UHGV virus genome: UHGV-1330501
Length of the DNA stretch: 9,372 bases
DNA from: a virus
Strand: one strand, 5' to 3'
The translations under genes and the position numbers were made by a program. The first letter of the stretch is position 1; every line of letters starts with the position of its first letter. Positions 1 through 9,372 of this stretch are shown here, piece by piece. Under the pieces are notes generated by a model, which worked only from the letters and a program-made list of their open reading frames with translations, ran no database searches and was not told where the DNA came from.

Positions 1-55
1 TTCGATTTTCGCAGCGGCCTTTTCAACATAACGAGTCGTACATTATGCGCACCAA
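1..55. repeat. Left copy of a perfect 55-bp direct repeat (identical to 8400..8454); contains a dif-like XerD-arm/central/XerC-arm element (21..53) and the right half of a terminator stem (10..20). Probably truncated by the window start.
   Basis: Exact identity of 1..55 with 8400..8454; sequence diverges at 56 versus 8455. Plus-strand TTATGCGCACC (43..53) is the reverse complement of the E. coli dif XerC arm GGTGCGCATAA. Confidence 0.85.
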
Positions 56-91
56 TGGTAAGGATGGCGGGAACTGGCGTTACCGGTGCCG

Positions 92-325
92 TCATTGGTC
101 ACAGACCGTAATCCACTGGCCCAGGACGTCTTTCAGGCAATGTTGGCATAAATCCAGTTTTAAGCGATTACTGTCACCAAAAATTGAACCGTATCCAGCT
201 AAGTGATTAACAGACAGAAACTCATTGAACTCAATGTCATCTACCACCGTCTTCGCATGGCGACCACAGCGATCGCAGGTCTTCGCACATAACATTACAG
301 TATCGCTGGATGTGAAAAATTGCAT
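92..325 (-). CDS. Hypothetical small Cys-rich protein (77 aa), possible zinc-ribbon fold (C-x3-C-x2-C ... C-x2-C); accessory gene with no Ff counterpart.
   Basis: ATG at 325 preceded by strong SD (GAGGAG about 7 nt upstream on minus strand); Cys cluster CAKTCDRC ... CQHC in translation. Confidence 0.55.
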   Translation of the reverse strand: MQFFTSSDTVMLCAKTCDRCGRHAKTVVDDIEFNEFLSVNHLAGYGSIFGDSNRLKLDLCQHCLKDVLGQWITVCDQ

Positions 326-397
326 TTTATCTCCTCGTAATGCTGCCGCGCCGAATCAGCAATAACGCTAAAAAAACAGAATTGTTCGGCTTGGCCA

Positions 398-438
398 ACC
401 CCTGACACTAACAAAAGCAAGTTTTGTCATTGTCCGGG
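398..438 (-). promoter_or_regulatory. Long imperfect hairpin (about 19-bp stem, two mismatches, short loop) directly downstream of the 102-aa ORF; candidate terminator or minus-strand-origin-like structure. A run of seven T on the minus strand lies about 20 nt further on (plus 370..376).
   Basis: Plus-strand aacccctgacactaacaaaagcaagttttgtcattgtccggggtt is self-complementary (CCCCTGACA / TGTCCGGGG outer arms, ACAAAAG / GTTTTGT inner arms). Confidence 0.35.
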
Positions 439-442
439 GTTA

Positions 443-751
443 TCATATAAACCAATAGACCGTCCTTACGCCATTCTGGTTATCAATAACATAGCCGCAT
501 TGTTTCCTTAAAAATTCTTCTGCTAAATCAATGGCTTTTACAGAAATCTCATAAGAAGGAAGTAAAGTGTATCCTTTCCCTTCACTGGCAGCTGCTTTGA
601 TCGCATCCAGAGTATTATCAATCAGTAACAGAGCAAGTGATGCTTCATTTACCTGAGCCGAAGAACTTCTGGCTGCAAGTGTCATTGTTTTTGCTTCTTC
701 CGCTGTAATCGTTCGTTCTGCCAGAGCAGATAAAATCCCATAAGAATCCAT
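443..751 (-). CDS. Hypothetical protein (102 aa), Ala/Leu-rich and probably helical; accessory gene in the position of the Ff noncoding intergenic region.
   Basis: ATG at 751 with GGGG about 7 nt upstream; same strand as phage genes, immediately after the gene IV terminal hairpin. No recognisable family. Confidence 0.5.
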   Translation of the reverse strand: MDSYGILSALAERTITAEEAKTMTLAARSSSAQVNEASLALLLIDNTLDAIKAAASEGKGYTLLPSYEISVKAIDLAEEFLRKQCGYVIDNQNGVRTVYWFI

Positions 752-772
752 TAGTTACCCCAATCAATAATG

Positions 773-830
773 TCCATTTGATGGATAGCGAGCAGGGCTC
801 ACGCACCTACCCGCTATCCATCAAAGTGGA
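773..830 (-). promoter_or_regulatory. Large hairpin (about 18-bp stem with one bulge, 21-nt loop) overlapping the gene IV stop codon; candidate packaging signal and/or gene IV terminator, as in Ff phages.
   Basis: tccatttgatggatagcg (773..790) pairs with cgctatccatcaaagtgga (812..830); position directly after gene IV matches where the Ff packaging-signal hairpin lies. Confidence 0.45.
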
Positions 831-2086
831 CGAATGATATGTGCTGTAAGCAAAATATACATAATACGCTGTTCATTGCTGTCTGCCTTGCTACTGAAAA
901 TCCAGCCTATAAGAGGAATTTTACTTATAACTGGAACTGAACGCTCGGCATTGCTGAACGATGAATCGATAAGCCCTCCCAATAACAACGTCTGACCATC
1001 CTTAATCTGGACTGTCGTCTGAATCTGGCGCTGATTAGTAATAATATCGGATGCCTGATCATCATTGCTGATTGAATCAGCGCGAGTGTCGATAGTCAGA
1101 ACTAGTTGCCCGTTACCCATGACAACAGGCGTTACCTTGAGAGAAACGCCAACATCATGACGCTCGATAGTCTGAAACGGATTATTTACCCCGGCAGATT
1201 CGCCCGTTACCTTTCCGGTGATAAACGGCACATTCTTACCTACGGAAATGTAACCAGTCTGACCAGACTGAGTAAGAATACGCGGCGTTGAAATCACCTT
1301 AGAGCGTGAATTACTCTGGACAGCACGCAGAGACAGCGCCAACACGTTACCATCAAAAATACCAAAAGAACCGCCCGCCGTAGAAAGAGCGCTACCCAGT
1401 GCAGAAGTATTAAAGCCCCCCGCAACCTTATGACCGGATGCAGAACCTGCCGCAAACGATAAATCAACGCCATCAGACAAGCTGGTTTCAAACATCAGCG
1501 ACTGAATGAGAACCTGATCGCGGGCAACATCCACAGAATTGATAAAATCGGACAGAACCGGCAGCAGCTCGTCAGGCGCAGAAACAATCAGCGAGTTATT
1601 GCCTGGATAATCCACGACATTACCACCACCATTAGAATCAAGATAAATTTTAATCAGTTGCTGAACATCGGACGATCTAACTTTTGTCAGCTTAAAATTT
1701 CTGACCGTAAGCGCCACAGGTACTGGCTGGTAAGATGGCTCAGAAGGAAAAGTATCATAAGACTGGTTATCAGAATCATCGGAATCCGAAACCATCTGTG
1801 AAGGTAATTTAGACGGCAAAGAGACTACCGCAGGATTGCCAGAAAGCATGACAAAACCGTTAGCATTCAGAACAGACTTAAAGAAATCATCAATATTTGT
1901 TGGATTAACATCAGCATTAAATACGGTTACGTTTCCTTTAATATCAGGATTAACAATAACAGGCTTGCCAGTTTTTGAAGAATACCACTGAACAAATGAG
2001 CGAACAGATGAATTATTTAAATTAACAGTTTCAGCAGAAACGCAGAATGAACAGGCAAATAAAAAAGCAACAATAACAGAGCGCAT
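821..2086 (-). CDS. IV: Filamentous phage gene IV protein (pIV), outer-membrane secretin for virion export.
   Basis: Translation aligns along its length with M13 pIV as I recall it (e.g. GSFGIFxGxVLxLSxRA, NVPFITGxVTGESAxVNNPFQTIER, ILVPxLSKIPLIG). Start chosen at the internal Met (MRSVIVAFLFACSFCVSA, signal-peptide-like) with GGAG SD; the longer ORF to 2179 would overlap gene I. Confidence 0.9.
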   Translation of the reverse strand: MRSVIVAFLFACSFCVSAETVNLNNSSVRSFVQWYSSKTGKPVIVNPDIKGNVTVFNADVNPTNIDDFFKSVLNANGFVMLSGNPAVVSLPSKLPSQMVSDSDDSDNQSYDTFPSEPSYQPVPVALTVRNFKLTKVRSSDVQQLIKIYLDSNGGGNVVDYPGNNSLIVSAPDELLPVLSDFINSVDVARDQVLIQSLMFETSLSDGVDLSFAAGSASGHKVAGGFNTSALGSALSTAGGSFGIFDGNVLALSLRAVQSNSRSKVISTPRILTQSGQTGYISVGKNVPFITGKVTGESAGVNNPFQTIERHDVGVSLKVTPVVMGNGQLVLTIDTRADSISNDDQASDIITNQRQIQTTVQIKDGQTLLLGGLIDSSFSNAERSVPVISKIPLIGWIFSSKADSNEQRIMYILLTAHIIRPL

Positions 2087-2093
2087 AATAATA

Positions 2094-2468
2094 TTACTCC
2101 TGACAGGTAACAGTCTGTAAATAACGGCCTTTTCTAATAACAACACGACAGGCATCTTTAATATCAACGGAATAACCATCTTTAATCAAATCAAAATACT
2201 GATATTTCATACCTTTTGCATCAACAAACGTAACGGAAACGTCAAAGCCAAGTTGTGAAAAAGAATTAATAGAAAGTCGGGGTAAGTCACTGGACGAATC
2301 AGGCGTTACCGCCCTCGCCTGTTCAGCATAAGCAGATTTAATAGCTGAGATTTCATCAACATTCTTTCCAGACTGGAGCCAGAAACCAAACGCAAGCCCC
2401 AGCGCCAAAAAAGAAAGCATTAATATAAGACGGTTCGATTTGCGAAAATAAATTTTAGTGAGGCGCAT
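2094..2468 (-). CDS. XI: Putative gene XI protein (pXI), in-frame internal start within gene I at Met241 (MRLTKIYFRK...), as in Ff phages.
   Basis: Internal ATG at the position corresponding to M13 pXI start (MKLTKIYLKK), followed by a hydrophobic membrane segment. Confidence 0.5.
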   Translation of the reverse strand: MRLTKIYFRKSNRLILMLSFLALGLAFGFWLQSGKNVDEISAIKSAYAEQARAVTPDSSSDLPRLSINSFSQLGFDVSVTFVDAKGMKYQYFDLIKDGYSVDIKDACRVVIRKGRYLQTVTCQE

Positions 2469-3188
2469 ATAATAATTAAATCCTCTGTGAACAGAAAATT
2501 GACCGTGCGTGATAAATGGTGGCAAAAGCGAAAATGCGCCATGAGGATAATTATCTGTGAACGCTTGTTTGGTATTGTAAGCAGAATAAAGAGATTTTCC
2601 TGTATATATCCATTTATCAACAGTGATTGAATTAACATTATCACCATATTTGACAATGCCAAAGTGTACCTTTGGTAAAGAAAATCTCGCCCCTGAAACC
2701 AAATTCATAATGGAGCCAACAAAAGGAATGTTTAATTTATCTGAACGGCGACAATAAACAACATGCTCAGCAAGCGCCAGACGAGCTTGCTTATCCATTA
2801 TCGAAATATCCTGAATCAAAAATATAATATCCCAGCCTAATTTTCTGGCATGTAAAAACCAGTCAATAACAGGTTGTCTGTCTTTATCACCCCATGAGCG
2901 GGAATTAAACCAAGTACCACATTCATCAAGTACAAGGAGGCCATTACGGGATTCATCGTAAGATGTATTCCCAATACCAATAGCAAGTAAATCATTTAAT
3001 GAAGGCTTGTCAGGAATGCGAATAACGCGCGTTTTTTTCGCATAACGCCCAACCATAGGCATATTATGCAATTTAAGATCAAGATTAGTGGCAACAGGAC
3101 AACCCTTAGCAAGTCTTTCCTGTATTCTGGAAACACTAACAAGTGTCTTGCCTGAGCCTAATTTGCCTGTTACTACATAAACCGCCAT
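2094..3188 (-). CDS. I: Filamentous phage gene I protein (pI), Zot-like assembly ATPase with Walker A motif GKLGSGKT.
   Basis: N-terminus MAVYVVTGKLGSGKTLVSV closely matches M13 pI (MAVYFVTGKLGSGKTLVSV); conserved LLVLDECGTWFN and ARKLGWDIIFL; start directly follows the gene VI stop. Confidence 0.92.
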   Translation of the reverse strand: MAVYVVTGKLGSGKTLVSVSRIQERLAKGCPVATNLDLKLHNMPMVGRYAKKTRVIRIPDKPSLNDLLAIGIGNTSYDESRNGLLVLDECGTWFNSRSWGDKDRQPVIDWFLHARKLGWDIIFLIQDISIMDKQARLALAEHVVYCRRSDKLNIPFVGSIMNLVSGARFSLPKVHFGIVKYGDNVNSITVDKWIYTGKSLYSAYNTKQAFTDNYPHGAFSLLPPFITHGQFSVHRGFNYYMRLTKIYFRKSNRLILMLSFLALGLAFGFWLQSGKNVDEISAIKSAYAEQARAVTPDSSSDLPRLSINSFSQLGFDVSVTFVDAKGMKYQYFDLIKDGYSVDIKDACRVVIRKGRYLQTVTCQE

Positions 3189-3533
3189 TTAAATCACCCT
3201 GTTTGCATAATCAAGAAATTTTTGTTTTAAATCGAAAACAAAAACACTGATACGAGTAACCATAATAACGTTAACACACGCCTGAAAATGGTCAGGCAAT
3301 ACAGACGCCATTAAATGGGAGAAATCAGCAGGTAAACCGTTATACATGACCTCAGCAAGGTACTGCATTAAAAGCGTAACAGTTGTTGTAATTAATGCGA
3401 CCAATGCAAAGGCGATTAATCCTGTTCTGGTAGCAAGTCGAGCTAAAAAACTCGCCACATAGCCAATAAACAAAGGAACAAGACCAATAAGAAAACGCAA
3501 CAATGCAGGAATACCTAATAATAAAGGCATCAC
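3189..3533 (-). CDS. VI: Filamentous phage gene VI protein (pVI), minor coat protein.
   Basis: N-terminus [15 protein letters not shown] and C-terminal FVFDLKQKF resemble M13 pVI (MPVLLGIPLLLRFL ... FIFDVKQKI); start overlaps the gene III stop (ATGA). Confidence 0.85.
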
Positions 3534-4825
3534 TCACCCCCTTTGCGAAGCAATGAAGTTAAAGAAGTAAAGACATACCAGAACGTAAGGCAATAAAAAA
3601 CCCATGAAAGAACATCTTTAATAGTCAGTAATTTATCGCAACCAATATCAATCTGATAAACCTCTCCGGGAAAAATAATAAAATCAGAGCAGCCGTTACC
3701 ATTGGGTAAATTAGGCAGCATAGCACCTTTATTTAAAAATGCTTCCCATAAAGCACCGTGAGAATCCTTTTCAATTCCCAATTCAGAATCAGCTAAAGTA
3801 GAAGCGCCATCTAATTCAGAGTCGCCCTTTCCATAACGAGAATCACCACCTGAAGGGTCAGCAAAACGGCCAGCCCCCCGCGTAAGATTGTTAATGGAAT
3901 CGTCAAGACGATTTATATTATTCCTGGTTTGTTCATCGGCATTTTTTTTATCATCTGATGAAGTGTCTTTCTCCGTTAATTTATCATGAATATCGCTGGC
4001 TATTTTGGGTGAAGCACCTTCGATCGCAGACTGAATATCACCTTTAGAAAGACTGGAACCACTAGAGCCACCGCCAGAACTACCGCCACCGGACTCACCA
4101 CCGCCAGACTCACCACCACCGGACTCACCACCACCGGACTCACCACCACCGGACTCACCACCGCCGGACTCACCACCGCCGGACTCACCACCGCCAGACT
4201 CACCACCACCATTTTGGGGGGTTGAGGGTTTATCAGAGGGGTCAGCTACAGCACCTGTAGGCTTCCATGTTGCAGCGCAAACAGTACCATCACCCTGACA
4301 AACAATGACACCAGTAGCCTCATATTCACAGCCGTTATAGTAGATATAGCGACCACCATCATATGAATCAACATTATTAAATACACCTTCTTCTGGCGGC
4401 TTCGCTTCACAAATTTCTTCTGGTGTCGGGTCAGTAGGTTTTTCATCAGGAACAGAACGCTGAATATTACCAACAATATAAGCCGTTAAAGACCAATATT
4501 TATCCTTCTGCCCTGGTGAATCGCTGTAAGTACAATCGCCAGTAAAAACAAGACGGAATTCAGAATCAGGCCAGATACCCTCATAAGTTGGTTTAATCCG
4601 AGTAAATACACTCTGAGCACTGGATTTAGCACCCTGACAAGCGGAGGCCTGCATAGCAGCATCAATATAGTAAACCGTTATCTTAGAGCCATCCTGATTG
4701 GTTATTTGCTTACTTTCAGCATAGGCAGAACTTTGATAAGTGGATTTAGTAATGCTTTCCCATGACTCAGCATGTGAAAAAGGAGAAATGAGGACAGCGG
4801 AAAGAATTAATATTTTCCTTCTCAT
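3530..4825 (-). CDS. III: Filamentous phage gene III protein (pIII), minor coat / adsorption protein with Cys-containing N-terminal domains, Gly-rich (GGGES)n linker and C-terminal membrane anchor.
   Basis: Position after gene VIII and its terminator; signal-peptide-like start [19 protein letters not shown] chosen over the longer ORF to 4969, which would overlap gene VIII; Gly-rich linker repeats. Confidence 0.8.
4091..4210 (-). repeat. Tandem array of eight 15-bp units (minus-strand sense CGGTGGTGGTGAGTC and variants) encoding (GGGES)n in the pIII linker, with degenerate copies extending to about 4063.
   Basis: Direct reading of the repeated gactcaccacc(a/g)cc(g/a) units in the plus strand. 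Confidence 0.9.
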
Positions 4826-4843
4826 AGTAACCCGCTTTAATAA

Positions 4844-4862
4844 AGGGGCAACGAGTGCCCCT
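4844..4862 (-). terminator. Stem-loop (AGGGGCA, 5-nt loop, TGCCCCT) between gene VIII and gene III, followed on the minus strand by TTATTAAAG; candidate intrinsic terminator, as after gene VIII in Ff phages.
   Basis: 7-bp GC-rich inverted repeat in the sequence; position matches the Ff gene VIII terminator. The T-tract is weak. Confidence 0.45.
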
Positions 4863-4871
4863 GAGTGAAAT

Positions 4872-5114
4872 TCAAACCGCTTTTGAAGAGAATTTTTTGA
4901 AAATACGAATGGCAAGCCCAGCGCCAACCACAGCAACAACAACAGGCCATACTTTACCAATGAGATCATTTGCCTGAGTCAACAAAGCATCCATTGCCTG
5001 ACCTGCATAATCAGTACCACCTGTAGCGCCTTCAGCCGCAAAAGAACTTGCAGAAATAAAAAGCGCAGTTGAAGCCAAAGCAATTTTATATTTAACAGTA
5101 GACAGAATTTTCAT
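4872..5114 (-). CDS. VIII: Filamentous phage gene VIII protein (pVIII), major coat protein precursor.
   Basis: Signal peptide ending SFA followed by AEG; acidic N-terminus, hydrophobic core and basic C-terminus (KKFSSKAV) parallel M13 pVIII (SFA-AEGDD ... KKFTSKAS); GGAG SD upstream. Confidence 0.88.
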
Positions 5115-5133
5115 AGGAATAACTCCATTAAGG

Positions 5134-5229
5134 TTACATTAATCGGTCAGAAAATGATTTAAATGAACCGACCGCATAGAAAAGGGCAAAACCAAAGGTA
5201 TAAGCCCCGAAGAAATAAACGATATACAT
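5134..5229 (-). CDS. IX: Putative gene IX protein (pIX), 31-aa hydrophobic minor coat protein (MYIVYFFGAYTFGFALFYAVGSFKSFSDRLM).
   Basis: Small ORF whose ATG overlaps the gene VII stop (TAATG); size, hydrophobicity and position match Ff gene IX. Confidence 0.6.
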   Translation of the reverse strand: MYIVYFFGAYTFGFALFYAVGSFKSFSDRLM

Positions 5230-5315
5230 TAACGAAAGACCCCCGCAGTAATCGCGCCGAGGCCAAAAGAAATAACGATGCCAGACGCTATCAAAATTTG
5301 AATAACATCGTCCAT
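5229..5315 (-). CDS. VII: Putative gene VII protein (pVII), 28-aa hydrophobic minor coat protein (MDDVIQILIASGIVISFGLGAITAGVFR).
   Basis: ATG two nt after the gene V-position stop; composition resembles M13 pVII (MEQVADFDTIYQAMIQISVVLCFALGIIAGGQR). Not in the ORF track because of its size. Confidence 0.6.
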   Translation of the reverse strand: MDDVIQILIASGIVISFGLGAITAGVFR

Positions 5316-5317
5316 AT

Positions 5318-5635
5318 TTAACCTTTGATCTCTGCGATGCCACCATCGGAAGCAACATTATAAGTTACACCTTCCCTACCCTCCATTGACCACGCACGGA
5401 CATAGACAGGAATTTGAACTAATTTCCCAATGAAAGCATTCGCCTGGTTCATTAGACCTGCGTTAACGAGAGCCTGAGAAACTCGAATAATAATTTGATC
5501 CTGCTTTGTACCACCAAAACCATCAGGTATTTCAAGGCCAATACCAATTTCATTATAATAGCCCTGACCATTAACTTTATTACGTTGGCGGGCTCCCAAC
5601 ATTTTACCCTTAACGAAAAGACCATAATTAGACAT
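5318..5635 (-). CDS. Protein in the gene V position (105 aa); putative ssDNA-binding protein by synteny only.
   Basis: ATG at 5635 with AAGGAAAG SD, 11 nt after the gene II stop. The sequence does not obviously resemble M13 gVp as I recall it. Confidence 0.5.
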   Translation of the reverse strand: MSNYGLFVKGKMLGARQRNKVNGQGYYNEIGIGLEIPDGFGGTKQDQIIIRVSQALVNAGLMNQANAFIGKLVQIPVYVRAWSMEGREGVTYNVASDGGIAEIKG

Positions 5636-5646
5636 ATTACTTTCCT

Positions 5647-5961
5647 TTAATGCCAGCTACTGGCGTGCGAAATACGGTTGTAATCGAAAATAAAACCTTT
5701 CTCATAAATCCATAAGGGGATTTCCGCTGGCTTGGCTTCCAGCGTTCTTATTAGCGGAACAACGTTATTAGAGTCTGGTGAATCACAATAGAAATTAATA
5801 TCGATACCGAACGAAAGCAATTCTCTTCTATGGCGATAAAAAGTGTTATGAGGTAACATTTCTTTCATGTTAGCCCCTTGTTTCCAAAGTAAATAAGTTG
5901 ACTGTATTTTTCTTGGCAGTTTCGTTATTTTTTCATCACTTAAAATAGCATTCTGATTCAT
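5647..5961 (-). CDS. X: Putative gene X protein (pX): in-frame internal start within gene II (MNQNAILSDE..., about 104 aa).
   Basis: Internal ATG at 5961 preceded by GGGAG SD about 8 nt upstream; analogous to Ff pX, the C-terminal third of pII. An alternative internal ATG at 6009 lacks a clear SD. Confidence 0.4.
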   Translation of the reverse strand: MNQNAILSDEKITKLPRKIQSTYLLWKQGANMKEMLPHNTFYRHRRELLSFGIDINFYCDSPDSNNVVPLIRTLEAKPAEIPLWIYEKGFIFDYNRISHASSWH

Positions 5962-6699
5962 TTCTATTCTCCCTACATATTCAGAGAATAATTGACGTGG
6001 TGTTTTCATATTCCAGTTAGCGCCAAGCGTTAAATTTAAATCAATAAGCTCAGTTGTTCTTAATGTTAATTCAATACGTAATTTATCTTTCGTCCAGTCC
6101 AGTAACCCGGCTCGTACAAACTCTTCGGCTATCTGGTGCCCTTTTTTACCAGAAACGTGTTCATCATATTTTGAATAAAATTTCAGACTCCATCGACGGG
6201 AGTTTTTACCTAAATAAACTGTACCGCCTTTCCCACATGCGCGACCATGGCGTGTTTTAGCTTTAAATTCGGCGGCATAAAGCCATGATCTGACATTTTC
6301 CAGCGTAGATAATGAATACATGTAATTAATGTCAATACGTGAAATTTTATACTGACCTGCCATAACGGCTTTATAAGACGCTAAATCATGAGGAATATTC
6401 AATAAGGATAAAATCCTGGCATAGACCGTCAACATGAGCCCTTGTATATCATCCGACCCAACAACAGAATGCCCCTGCAGAAACTTGGAAGGATTACCAT
6501 CAATGTACAAATGTGTCGCTTTACCTTCGCCATTAGATCCTATCGATCGTACTTTCATCGTTGCTTCATGCGAGCCGCGAACAGTCAGTCGCTTAACGGT
6601 TTCCCACTCAATTGCACCGTCAGCATCAACGCTGACAACACTCCCCGCCGGAAGCGGTTTGTGTGTGCAAGGGAAAATCCCGGTAAGCCAATCGATCAC
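5647..6699 (-). CDS. II: Filamentous phage gene II protein (pII), rolling-circle replication initiator. Start placed at GTG 6699 (protein would begin MIDWLTG...); the ORF is open upstream to GTG 6741.
   Basis: Large ORF at the head of the minus-strand gene order; GAGGA SD 8 nt upstream of GTG 6699 and resemblance of MIDW... to the M13 pII N-terminus MIDMLVL. Confidence 0.8.
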   Translation of the reverse strand: MIDWLTGIFPCTHKPLPAGSVVSVDADGAIEWETVKRLTVRGSHEATMKVRSIGSNGEGKATHLYIDGNPSKFLQGHSVVGSDDIQGLMLTVYARILSLLNIPHDLASYKAVMAGQYKISRIDINYMYSLSTLENVRSWLYAAEFKAKTRHGRACGKGGTVYLGKNSRRWSLKFYSKYDEHVSGKKGHQIAEEFVRAGLLDWTKDKLRIELTLRTTELIDLNLTLGANWNMKTPRQLFSEYVGRIEMNQNAILSDEKITKLPRKIQSTYLLWKQGANMKEMLPHNTFYRHRRELLSFGIDINFYCDSPDSNNVVPLIRTLEAKPAEIPLWIYEKGFIFDYNRISHASSWH

Positions 6700-6868
6700 G
6701 AATAAATCCTCAAAATTGCAAAAATGACGACTTACTAACACATGAGTTCAGTAGTTCATTAGTGTTTAAACATTACACCAGTGAGCTAGTGAGTTCAAGA
6801 GGCTTGGATGATATGAGTTCATGAGCATGTATACTCACTTCAAATATTGCATTGAACGAGCGTAAAAA
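6700..6868. promoter_or_regulatory. Divergent intergenic control region between gene II (minus) and the plus-strand accessory operon, with three direct copies of TGAGTTCA (6743..6750, 6790..6797, 6814..6821); candidate operators, promoters and/or plus-strand origin.
   Basis: Direct repeats read from the sequence; location between divergently oriented genes. The first copy lies upstream of the preferred gene II start at 6699. Confidence 0.45.
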
Positions 6869-7051
6869 ATGGCAAAGCGCACGACTTATAACGTGACGGA
6901 AGAAAGAAAAATGAAACTAGAACGACTGGCTATAAATGCCAGTGTAAAACTAGGAAAAACAATTACATGGACAGAGATTTTAGGTTATCTGATTGATAAC
7001 TACTCTAAAGATGCAGCAGAAGATCTCATGTCTGCCAAACAAAAGGATTAA
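6869..7051 (+). CDS. Small basic protein (60 aa), candidate transcriptional regulator (possibly ribbon-helix-helix-like) read divergently from gene II.
   Basis: ATG at 6869 and stop TAA at 7049..7051; a short N-terminal stretch (TTYNVT) followed by charged helical sequence. Function inferred from position and size only. Confidence 0.5.
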   Translation: MAKRTTYNVTEERKMKLERLAINASVKLGKTITWTEILGYLIDNYSKDAAEDLMSAKQKD

Positions 7052-7068
7052 GTACCACGAATGGTACA

Positions 7069-7107
7069 AACGTGCAGTATTACCTACACTGCACGTTCTT
7101 TATTGTG
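7069..7107 (+). terminator. Hairpin (10-bp stem AACGTGCAGT / ACTGCACGTT, 9-nt loop) followed by CTTTATTGTG; candidate intrinsic terminator or attenuator between the regulator and the membrane-protein gene.
   Basis: Perfect inverted repeat plus T-rich tail read directly from the sequence. Confidence 0.45.
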
Positions 7108-7139
7108 CGGATTTTGAACAGCAACAAAGGATCAAAAGG

Positions 7140-7562
7140 ATGAGTAGAAATAACGAAACAAGCGGCGTTGAACTGGTTGTTGTAGGCGTATTTGCTTTCT
7201 GTCTGGCAGTTGTTGCCTGGCTAATGAAAACTTTCGATGTTGAATGGCAAACAGCACTGGAAACTGCGCCTGGCCTGATAGTCTGGCTGCTTGTTGTCGG
7301 TGCGGGGATCTTTTTCGGGATCAAAATGGAAACTGGCCTTATTCGCTGGGGTGCTCCACTGGCGATCGCCCTTCTGATTCCGGTATTCAAGCCAATTCTT
7401 AAGGAAGCTGCCGGAGTTCGTGAAACGGGTGGGCTGGTTTTCGATGATATGGTTTCGTGGTATGGAACTGGCTGGGGAATGTCTCTGATGTTCTTCGGGA
7501 TTCTTATTGTCGGATATGGCCTGCTTTATTGGTGGCACAGAAGAAATTCATATTACTGGTAA
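7140..7562 (+). CDS. Hypothetical integral membrane protein (140 aa, about four hydrophobic segments).
   Basis: Internal ATG at 7140 with AAGGA upstream; four hydrophobic stretches. The longer ORF from 6993 overlaps the regulator gene and the hairpin and is judged an artefact. Confidence 0.6.
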   Translation: MSRNNETSGVELVVVGVFAFCLAVVAWLMKTFDVEWQTALETAPGLIVWLLVVGAGIFFGIKMETGLIRWGAPLAIALLIPVFKPILKEAAGVRETGGLVFDDMVSWYGTGWGMSLMFFGILIVGYGLLYWWHRRNSYYW

Positions 7563-7590
7563 TCAATAAAACGTAGAAGAGAGGAAACAT

Positions 7591-7866
7591 ATGAAACTGA
7601 ATCCTGAGAAATACAATAGAAACATTACCCTGCTATGTCCTGTGTGCGGAAATACAGAGATGGAACACGAGGAAGAGTCTGAAGTCGTTAGATGTGTAGG
7701 CTGCGGGAAAGAATTTACTAATGATGAGTTAATCCAAGAAAACGGGGTGAGTATTGACGCTCATGTAGATGAAATAAAAGAAGAGTTAACAAAAGACATT
7801 CAAAAACAGTTTAACGACATGCTCAAAAAGGCATTTAAGGGAAGTAAGAATATAAGGATCAAATAA
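7591..7866 (+). CDS. Hypothetical zinc-ribbon protein (91 aa; CPVC-x14-CVGC followed by an acidic/basic helical tail).
   Basis: ATG at 7591 with GAGGAAA SD; two CxxC pairs; AT-rich composition distinct from the phage core; stop overlaps the next start (TAATG). Confidence 0.65.
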   Translation: MKLNPEKYNRNITLLCPVCGNTEMEHEEESEVVRCVGCGKEFTNDELIQENGVSIDAHVDEIKEELTKDIQKQFNDMLKKAFKGSKNIRIK

Positions 7867-8345
7867 TGACAACAAGTGATGCCATCGCTTTAGCTGCGCT
7901 TGTAGTATCGATTTACACTATCATATCGTCAGAAATGAAATCGAGAAAAAGCGATAGAGAACAAAAGGTTATAAAGGATGAGCAAGACAGGTTACGTAAG
8001 TTGCTTCTGGAAAAAGAAACAAAGTCAGCAATTAATGAGATGAAAGCTGAGCTTGGTGCTCGCCTCGTAAAAATAGCCAAAAACAACTATAGGCTCAAGA
8101 TATTTAATAGAGGGAGAGTTGAGGCTAAAAATATAGAGATTCATTTCCCTGATAACGATGGAAATGAATATCTTTCAATGCATGATGTAGAAGATAAATT
8201 TCCATATGAGGTATTACACCCGCAACATGGAATTGAAATTTTAGCGGGAATAAGCTTTGGAAGTAAAACTAAATACCGAATAAAACTCATATGGGATGAC
8301 AATTATAAAAGAAGAAATGAAGAGGAGTTTTTCATTTCTATATAA
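7866..8345 (+). CDS. Hypothetical membrane-anchored protein (159 aa): N-terminal hydrophobic helix, charged coiled-coil-like segment, C-terminal globular domain.
   Basis: ATG overlapping the upstream stop; N-terminal AIALAALVVSIYTIISS; AT-rich; followed by a strong terminator. Confidence 0.65.
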   Translation: MTTSDAIALAALVVSIYTIISSEMKSRKSDREQKVIKDEQDRLRKLLLEKETKSAINEMKAELGARLVKIAKNNYRLKIFNRGRVEAKNIEIHFPDNDGNEYLSMHDVEDKFPYEVLHPQHGIEILAGISFGSKTKYRIKLIWDDNYKRRNEEEFFISI

Positions 8346-8385
8346 ATTGGTTCGCACAATGACGTTATGCTAAAGAGGCCGCTGC

Positions 8386-8422
8386 GGGATTCGATTTTCG
8401 CAGCGGCCTTTTCAACATAACG
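8386..8422 (+). terminator. Intrinsic terminator: 11-bp GC-rich stem (AGGCCGCTGCG / CGCAGCGGCCT), 12-nt loop, then TTTT.
   Basis: Perfect inverted repeat 8386..8396 / 8409..8419 followed by a T-tract, 40 nt after the 159-aa gene stop. Confidence 0.75.
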
Positions 8423-8454
8423 AGTCGTACATTATGCGCACCAAAATTATAGAG
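8400..8454. repeat. Right copy of the 55-bp direct repeat, carrying the dif-like element (XerC arm TTATGCGCACC at 8442..8452); putative right attachment site of the prophage.
   Basis: Exact identity with 1..55; overlaps the loop and 3-prime half of the terminator. Confidence 0.85.
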
Positions 8455-8484
8455 GCTCAATGCTAATGTTCTATTTGTGGCTCA

Positions 8485-9372
8485 TTGGAGGCACTCAGTA
8501 TAATCCGGGAGCACTACCGTGATTTTGGCCCCACGCTGGCGCGGGAAAAGCTGGAGGAAGTTCACGGTCTGGTCCTTGGAAAGGAAACCATCCGACGTCT
8601 CATGATAAACGCGGGACTCTGGATCCCCCGCAGACAACGCGCACCGAAAATTCATCAGCCTCGTTACCGGCGTCCTTGTACTGGCGAGCTGATACAAATT
8701 GATGGCTGCGACCACCACTGAATACGGTAAACCGATGATCCTCTACAGCGATAAAGCCAGCGTATTCAGAGTCAATAATAAGCACGCCACCACCGGTCTC
8801 GGCGATACCCAGTTTGCCAGGGCCATGCGCTGCCTTAATATTACTCCTTTGTGTGCTGAAACCAGCCAGGCAAAAGGCCGCGTTGAACGTGCTCATTTGA
8901 CACTTCAGGACCGACTCGTTAAGGAGCTCAGGCTTAAGGGGATCTGTACAATAGAAGCGGCCAATGCATTTGCAGAAGAATACATGGCGGATTATAACCG
9001 GCGCTTTGCCAAAGAACCCTTGCATGATTTTAACGCGTACCGGCCGCTGGCATTAGACGATGACCTTGATGCAGAATTTACCTGGCGAGAGCCTCGCCGG
9101 GTATCAAAAAATCTGACTGTACAATACGATAAAATGCTCTATCTGATTGAGGACAACGAGTACAGTCGAAGAGCCATCGGCAAGTATATTGATGTCTGGC
9201 ATTATCCTGACGGACATAAGGAGCTGCGACTAAATGGCGTGCTGCTACCCTACTCCACCTATGACCGGCTTTCTGAGGTTGAGCCCGTCGCCATTGTAGA
9301 TAACAAGAGACTTGGCCATGTGTTGGATGTTGCCCGTCAGGTCCAGAGAAAACGGGACAATAATCGCTCACT
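8485..9372 (+). pseudogene. DDE-type transposase of an insertion sequence (retroviral-integrase-like catalytic core), interrupted by a frameshift near 8719 and running off the window end; family not determined.
   Basis: Frame 1 (TTG start 8485) ends ...IQIDGCDHH at TGA 8719..8721; frame 2 continues from 8720 with EYGKPMILYSDKASVF ... AKGRVERAHLTLQDRL (DDE-like D, D, E motifs), open to 9372. Confidence 0.7.

Follow-up and report, generated by a model that had tools for sequence, protein, structure and literature searches.

The DNA analysed here (the window) is the 9,372-nucleotide UHGV virus genome UHGV-1330501, read on one strand. It carries an E. coli dif prophage of the UPΦ type, a filamentous phage (Inoviridae), with chromosomal flank to its right. 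The prophage unit measures 8389 bp (56-8389 plus 8390-8444), and is preceded at 1-55 by a second copy of its last 55 nucleotides. The core genes II, V, VII, VIII, III, VI, I and IV lie on the − strand in IKe order, as assigned with Pfam and PHROGs, together with the UM146 annotation for gene VII (G7P-2). Accessory and regulatory genes are on the + strand, and small accessory genes are present at both ends. The main features are listed below.

92..751, − strand: two small accessory reading frames at the phage left end, of 77 aa (92-325) and 102 aa (443-751), belonging to phrog_5435 and phrog_4115, both of unknown function, and hypothetical in UM146
821..2179, − strand: gene IV, secretin (Pfam Secretin, Secretin_N and GspD N0), about 80% identical in nucleotide sequence to IKe gene IV; the start annotated in relatives gives 421 aa
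2094..3188, − strand: gene I, Zot-like assembly ATPase (Pfam Zot, E = 6e-41)
3189..3533, − strand: gene VI-like (Pfam DUF5455)
3530..4969, − strand: gene III, attachment protein (Pfam G3P_pilus-bind and Phage_Coat_A)
4872..5114, − strand: gene VIII, major coat protein (phrog_1646)
5318..5635, − strand: gene V, single-stranded DNA-binding protein (Pfam Putative_G5P, E = 8e-51)
5647..6741, − strand: gene II, rolling-circle replication initiator (Pfam Phage_CRI and G2P_X_C)
6869..8345, + strand: divergent accessory and regulatory genes, encoding 60 aa, 140 aa (7140-7562), a 91-aa ECs_2282 zinc ribbon (7591-7866) and a 159-aa cargo protein (7866-8345)
8347..8444, − strand: complete attP, a predicted 98-nt hairpin on the phage (+) strand (inverted repeat, DNA fold and conservation)
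8390..8444, no strand assigned: right repeat copy, the prophage-host junction (attR), where attP meets the sequence found after dif in E. coli strains without the phage
8445..9372, + strand: host flank (E. coli chromosome to the right of dif), made up of an ISNCY transposase remnant that is truncated and frameshifted (NCBIfam transpos_ISNCY_2)

Over 1-8444 the window is 98-99.7% identical to E. coli chromosomal prophages. The phage shows 99.7% nucleotide identity to the UM146 prophage and, over window positions 3-8444, 98.3% identity to ECONIH2 (CP014667). Primers specific for UPΦ901 fit gene III at 4226-4245 without mismatches and at 4676-4695 with two. The ECONIH2 identity and the primer matches, taken with the repeats coding for GGGES in gene III, identify the element by sequence as a UPΦ virus. 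When the phage GenBank collection was searched, no match to attP was found, and the only matching gene was gene IV, at 80% identity to the IKe and PEar phages.

Variation of the GGGES repeats in gene III has been described for UPΦ (PMC7307601). In the window, nine overlapping 15-nt tandem units at 4038-4225 code for a GGGES-type linker, and gene III is 1221, 1287, 1293 or 1440 nt long among close relatives. An exact-protein look-up found a residue-identical gene III protein in four draft genomes (GCA_009225925.1, GCA_010682525.1, GCA_010745035.1 and GCA_010394485.1; L022-L025). The neighbours of the phage in these drafts are genes for an MFS transporter, MarR, a ParE toxin, LacI and an amylase, unlike those of the E. 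coli dif region. An identical protein in a different neighbourhood suggests that the phage spread across hosts recently.

The accessory genes on the + strand belong to PHROGs families of unknown function, and the zinc ribbon is the NCBIfam family ECs_2282_CxxC. For the cargo genes at 7591-8345, PADLOC and NCBIfam gave no firm hit and no defence-system match of note. No integrase or recombinase domain was detected with Pfam, PHROGs or NCBIfam in the 14 phage reading frames scanned, which are the longer ones of the unit. The gene slot before attP is variable. In the window it holds the zinc ribbon and the 159-aa protein; in relatives it holds an STM4504/CBY_0614 protein, a PD-(D/E)XK nuclease, a CxxCx(11)CxxC mobilome protein, or a pair of proteins of 155 aa and 123 aa.

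The other end of the phage was also considered as a possible captured fragment of the 3′ part of hipA (56-330), an idea prompted by a look-alike sequence right of attR in UM146. It was dropped, as the similarity of host DNA next to dif in K-12 to the phage is weak and extends over only the first 40 or so bases. The look-alike in UM146 (L001, 12403-12620) is rich in N, resembles a consensus of the phage left end and the hipA 3′ flank, and has caused hipA to be called a pseudogene in that genome. A repeat collapsed in an old assembly is the probable cause.

The attP of the window is composed of two dif-like sites in inverted orientation, 34 nt apart, with a GC stem and loop between them.

8349-8375: site A, with an XerC-like arm GGTTCGCACAA (8349-8359), a spacer TGACG (8360-8364) and an XerD-like arm TTATGCTAAAG (8365-8375)
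8376-8386 with 8399-8409: apical GC stem, enclosing a 12-nt loop (8387-8398)
8410-8442: site B, inverted relative to site A

The phage (+) strand corresponds to the − strand of the window. When the 106-nt stretch 8343-8448, which contains the 98-nt hairpin, was folded as DNA, the predicted free energy was -30.4 kcal/mol, with z = -7.1. In the fold the XerC arms are paired with one mismatch, the spacers form an asymmetric internal bulge, the XerD-like arms are paired, and the GC stem lies on top. All 98 nucleotides are identical in the window, in a relative whose phage body is 84% identical (L003) and in YpfΦ of Y. pestis (L009), and the attP of GON1437, a phage with a different body and cargo, is also 100% identical over this length. 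Nine attP variants showed no compensatory changes: the differences are mostly loop changes, and the others disrupt pairing, which leaves fold energy and conservation as the support for the structure. On these two grounds the hairpin is judged to be real, and it is predicted to mimic duplex dif when folded on the phage (+) strand. The fold model places the site among attP sites of the CTX type, in which two inverted dif-like sites are able to pair on the (+) strand. No Rfam family matches the hairpin.

A stretch of about 72 nt of attP (window 8348-8419, comprising site A, the stem-loop and the start of site B) was also found at about 93% identity at about 477 places on E. coli plasmids of IncF/ColV type. 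On pECOS88 (NC_011747.1, L021) it occupies 3001-3071, directly after a gene for an 'abortive infection family protein' and an ISNCY pseudogene, and is cut inside site B, where IS200 follows. From its sequence, the plasmid stretch looks like a relic of the right end of a phage with its cargo gene.

At the right end of the prophage, the window matches many phage-free E. coli strains at 100% from 8428 onward. This match places the prophage, by sequence, at the chromosomal dif, with the crossover somewhere in TACATTATGCGCACCAA (8428-8444). The host flank beyond attR is ISNCY sequence, of which further copies occur on chromosomes and plasmids; GON1437 carries attP, the ISNCY remnant, SIR2, hipA and hipB in that order. 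A search of viral contigs for the right-junction pattern returned a single match, the IMG/VR contig IMGVR_UViG_3300045988_181437 (L002), and none of the finished E. coli genomes searched pairs this phage variant with an ISNCY-flanked dif. The IMG/VR contig carries other cargo at 1064-2150 (reading frames of 262 aa and 98 aa) where the window has 7563-8341, and its ISNCY flank departs from that of the window after 9158.

Self-alignment of the window showed a perfect match of 1-55 to 8390-8444 over all 55 positions, with an offset of 8389. The first mismatch beyond the repeat is T at 56 against A at 8445. No other non-tandem direct repeat longer than 35 nt was found in the window at 80% identity or above, and a perfect 55-nt repeat within 9.4 kb far exceeds what chance would produce. 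The left copy opens at base 1 of the window, and any further identity to the left lies past the window edge. Its parts are as follows; K-12 dif was used as the reference for the arms.

1-9, no strand assigned: part of the loop
10-19, no strand assigned: 3′ half of the GC stem, CGCAGCGGCC, which at the right end pairs with 8377-8386
21-31, no strand assigned: XerD-like arm TTTCAACATAA, matching E. coli dif at 9 of 11 positions
32-42, no strand assigned: spacer CGAGTCGTACA, of 11 nt (6 in dif)
43-53, no strand assigned: XerC arm TTATGCGCACC, matching dif at all 11 positions
54-55, no strand assigned: the shared bases AA, which end the left copy

T20, opposite A8376, is a possible eleventh pair of the GC stem. 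The original prediction had described the two copies as identical over the dif-like element and half of an adjoining stem, and this identity was recovered in full. Its statement that 10..20 equals 8409..8419 was in error, since the offset of 8389 gives 8399..8409. It had also taken the stem for the terminator of the phage operon. A consensus scan for Rho-independent terminators, using as criteria a GC stem, a loop of 3-8 nt and a T tract of at least five in eight, reported no such site in 7500-8700. The stem itself is good, and it is left uncalled because the loop has 12 nt and only four T residues follow (tail TTTTCAAC). The tip of the attP hairpin is the better reading of this stem.

To interpret the left copy, we compared it with the ends of prophages in relatives. 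In UM146 the left end reads ATTTAACATAATATACATTATGCGCACC and then AATGGTAAGG, which is a perfect host dif followed by the first bases of the phage, and the right end is a phage-type site. A perfect host dif is also present at the left end in the IMG/VR contig, whose right flank is that of the window, and in L007, L014 and L016. Thus the expectation that a single integration leaves a hybrid site at the left was borne out in all five of these relatives. In UM146, the IMG/VR contig and L007 the prophage has an intact dif at one end and a whole attP at the other; of these two ends, the window shows only the one with attP. Host dif and attP have only the 17 nt of TACATTATGCGCACCAA in common. As the left end of a single copy is a perfect dif, and that of the window carries the spacer, arm and stem found only in the phage, the left copy reads as a joint between a phage end and a phage start, and not as the left prophage-host junction. 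The complete joint would run through 8389|8390...8444 and then into TGGTAAGG; the window shows its last 55 nt and the first base of the phage.

Joints of this kind were sought in other genomes with a query composed of window 7945-8444 joined to 56-555. Among 5,426 finished E. coli genomes, seven contained the contiguous joint at 98-99.9% identity, and 27 more had the complete attP and phage start with a cargo gene of their own before attP. The joint is thus present in 34 finished genomes, compared with 49 that contain the left-end module of the phage, with a median of two places per genome. For the region upstream of the window, the left stem (AGGCCGCTGCG) and a homologue of the 159-aa gene had been predicted; both were found upstream of the same joint in the seven finished genomes. 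In 20Y000092, two full head-to-tail units lie between one perfect dif and hipA, and HUM3355 has at least three units. The units were mostly alike in the finished-genome arrays examined. In viral, genome and metagenome collections the pattern was found in L003, in Y. pestis (L009) and in 11 metagenome contigs, none of which is the window itself, and it is internal in long metagenome contigs. One of 125 kb (L011) has two gene III markers 8344 nt apart around the joint, and its two units carry different cargo beside attP. The 98-nt site also separates two YpfΦ units in Y. pestis NCTC5923, with the secretin gene of one unit on one side and the regulator and gene II of the following unit on the other.

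An extreme case was seen in E. coli EC5502 (L026, NZ_CP092647.1, 1-48000 and the record end), where 16-17 phage copies form one array that spans the record start. Most of the genes in this array are frameshifted, which suggests an unpolished long-read assembly. Either the array is truly very large, or reads from the replicative form were merged into the chromosome by the assembly.

We next consider the length of the left copy. It measures 55 nt exactly, and the base at which it stops is the last that the two paths, from attP to phage start and from attP to host flank, have in common. Were the cut arbitrary, the chance of its falling on that base would be about one in 8,400. By default, metaSPAdes and SPAdes for short reads both use 55 as their largest k. 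A contig named as a SPAdes NODE (L019) has the same architecture as the window, with a 55-mer, phage, full attP and host flank; its 55-mer starts one base later because its flank, beginning AATATAAACC, shares one more base with the phage start. Judging from the exact length and from this one parallel contig, the window probably starts at a branching node of a k=55 de Bruijn graph. In such a graph, a loop through the phage would meet an exit into the host flank at the contig start. The node 1-55 would be expected to have two exits, T to the phage and A to the flank, and a second entry would be expected at 39-93 from host DNA ending ATTTAACATAATA.

If the left copy is a product of k-mer assembly, its extent carries no biology, and the number of prophage copies is unreadable from the window. 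Both junctions are nevertheless real, since the 17-nt overlap of dif and attP is too short for joining at k=55 unless real reads span it. The DNA of the sample contained at least one integrated copy, represented by the right junction, and in addition an end-to-start joint. A contig break would be in keeping with the right end of the window, which falls in repeated ISNCY DNA. The last base, 9372, is T, as in the chromosomal ISNCY remnant of GON1437, compared with A in the plasmid copy of pECOS88; the simple node model does not account for the position of this last base at a difference between chromosomal and plasmid ISNCY, which may be chance or may be linked to the contig break.

The window resembles the contigs with terminal k-mer overlap that SPAdes and metaSPAdes produce at a top k of 55, in having an exact 55-nt repeat that ends at a branching base. 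It differs from them in that the second copy is internal and not at the other contig end, the path having left the loop into host flank. Where a contig carries a terminal repeat of exactly k bases ending at a branching base, a loop has been collapsed in short-read assembly. The number of prophage copies, and with it the ability to produce virions under the CTX-type model, is unreadable from a contig of this kind.

Taken together, the results make it highly probable that 1-55 is the end-to-start joint of a dif-integrated UPΦ-type prophage, cut to 55 bases by the assembler and derived from head-to-tail copies or from a circular form. As the source of the joint, a tandem array of at least two copies is probable, though with less assurance than the joint itself. 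This weighting follows from the 34 of 49 finished genomes with the left end that have a joint, and from the inability of a lone CTX-type prophage to make circles. One integrated prophage together with a free circular replicative form, or virion DNA, could also account for the window with no second chromosomal copy, as the joint between attP and first base in the circle would make the graph loop. The circular and tandem junctions are identical in sequence, so the window is equally compatible with either. Lysogens shed UPΦ virions (PMC7307601), and YpfΦ is an episome in many Y. pestis lineages (PMC4266046). However, a single CTX-type prophage cannot excise and requires a tandem partner for circles (PMC4246890), so that finding a replicative form together with an integrated copy usually means that an array is present or that superinfection was recent. 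As chromosomal arrays are also present in 34 of the 49 finished genomes that have this left end, we consider a circle beside a lone prophage rather unlikely. By contrast, almost no weight attaches to a single integration with an attP-like left junction, a chance repeat or a chimeric assembly. Nothing speaks positively for these; they draw only on the fact that the window opens at base 1 and shows nothing to its left. All the left junctions of single copies that were examined were hybrids with host dif sharing only 17 nt (TACATTATGCGCACCAA) with attP, far below 55; a k=55 graph needs real spanning reads; and a 55/55 repeat in 9.4 kb is far beyond chance.

The identity of the left neighbour is a separate matter. 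It had been proposed that this is another copy of the same or a related element. The logic of the joint and the arrays of relatives fit that proposal; against it, a second copy is not visible in the window, and a circular form gives the same sequence. A neighbour of a different kind would be a related element that integrates at dif and has the attP module in common: a phage of the YpfΦ/CUS-1 type, for example, a UPΦ variant differing in cargo, a remnant or a satellite. The visible 55 bases lie wholly within the shared module, which is invariant over 98 nt across differing bodies and cargo (the window, L003, L009 of Y. pestis and GON1437), and mixed arrays exist, as in the metagenome contig L011 with its differing cargo and in the heterogeneous triple of ECONIH2 (PMC7307601). 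Such a neighbour is nevertheless improbable, because array units in the finished genomes examined are mostly alike and heterologous sequence would often let the assembler extend to the left, as it did in L011 and L016. The satellite version of the proposal found no support: no shorter element sharing attP and lacking morphogenesis genes was present beside the phage in the arrays examined, and no satellite of this phage group, of the RS1 or TLC kind, was met in any search. That the window samples a mixed array, with a different element sharing the invariant 98-nt attP as its left neighbour, is a slightly more doubtful conjecture still. If it were true, rolling-circle replication across the joint could build hybrid phages and swap the cargo slot beside attP, and the Abi-linked attP remnants, which occur on ColV/IncF plasmids in their hundreds, could be a sign that filamentous phages carry cargo between chromosomes and plasmids.

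The favoured reading, a joint within a tandem array, can be set out as a pathway on the model of CTXΦ. In elements of the CTX type, XerC swaps one strand between folded single-stranded DNA and dif, replication finishes the reaction, and integration is irreversible (PMC4246890). For the phage of the window we infer Xer dependence, strand choice and irreversibility from work on CTXΦ and YpfΦ. By analogy, host XerC would exchange one strand at the XerC arm between the folded phage (+) strand and dif, and replication would then complete integration. The product would have a perfect dif at its left end and the whole hairpin joined to host DNA at its right end. Further integrations or recombination would give head-to-tail arrays, in which every joint but the leftmost would be a complete phage attP followed by the first base of the phage. 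A crossover at the XerC arm would thus leave the whole hairpin at the right end of each unit and rebuild a perfect dif at the far left, and the inner joints would have the attP of the free phage. A left copy that is a phage-to-phage joint would explain its stem sequence and its phage-type arm and spacer. For annotation, the rule that results is that a perfect dif marks the outer left end, and the 98-nt hairpin every inner joint and the right end.

UPΦ, the UPΦ901 group (PMC7307601), is among the closest known systems. The window shares with it the IKe-like order of core genes, the GGGES repeats of gene III, integration at dif, the primer sites and 98.3% identity to ECONIH2, in which a tandem, heterogeneous triple of UPΦ prophages has been described (Shapiro & Putonti 2020, Virus Evol 6:veaa030, PMC7307601). 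UPΦ is reported to integrate as tandem repeats that are unresolved by short reads, and no more than about 15 bases of dif recur from one unit to the next (PMC7307601). The cargo beside attP in the window, the 91-aa zinc ribbon and the 159-aa gene, is one of several variants.

YpfΦ of Y. pestis and CUS-1Φ of E. coli O18:K1:H7, both classed as CTX-type (PMC4246890), have in common with the window the identical 98-nt attP, the dif target and related genes II and V. They differ in their morphogenesis genes, which are of another lineage, with less than 30% amino-acid identity overall according to the UPΦ paper (PMC7307601). The Zot-like protein and the secretin of GON1437 and the Y. pestis phages have 341 aa and 414 aa, compared with 364 aa and 421 aa in the window. 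As in CTXΦ, YpfΦ has a pair of inverted XerC/XerD sites; it is present in 2-4 tandem copies with an imperfect dif between them, and new copies are reported to enter between resident copies and not at the array end (PMC4266046).

CTXΦ of Vibrio cholerae (Val et al. 2005; Das 2014, PMC4246890) resembles the phage of the window in having inverted dif-like sites that fold on the (+) strand and no phage integrase. Its integrated state likewise retains a usable dif, and tandem arrays are required for rolling-circle production of phage DNA; for CTX-type phages in general, it is the array that enables virion DNA to be made in this way (PMC4246890). CTXΦ differs in its host, in its cargo, which is unrelated, and in the spacing of the two sites, 34 nt in the phage of the window, and the biochemistry is that of CTXΦ, the likeness of UPΦ to it being known from sequence. 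Tandem arrays at dif and an attP of inverted sites have thus already been described for CTXΦ, YpfΦ/CUS-1 and UPΦ, and the window, which adds little that is new to them, takes its place in the same series.
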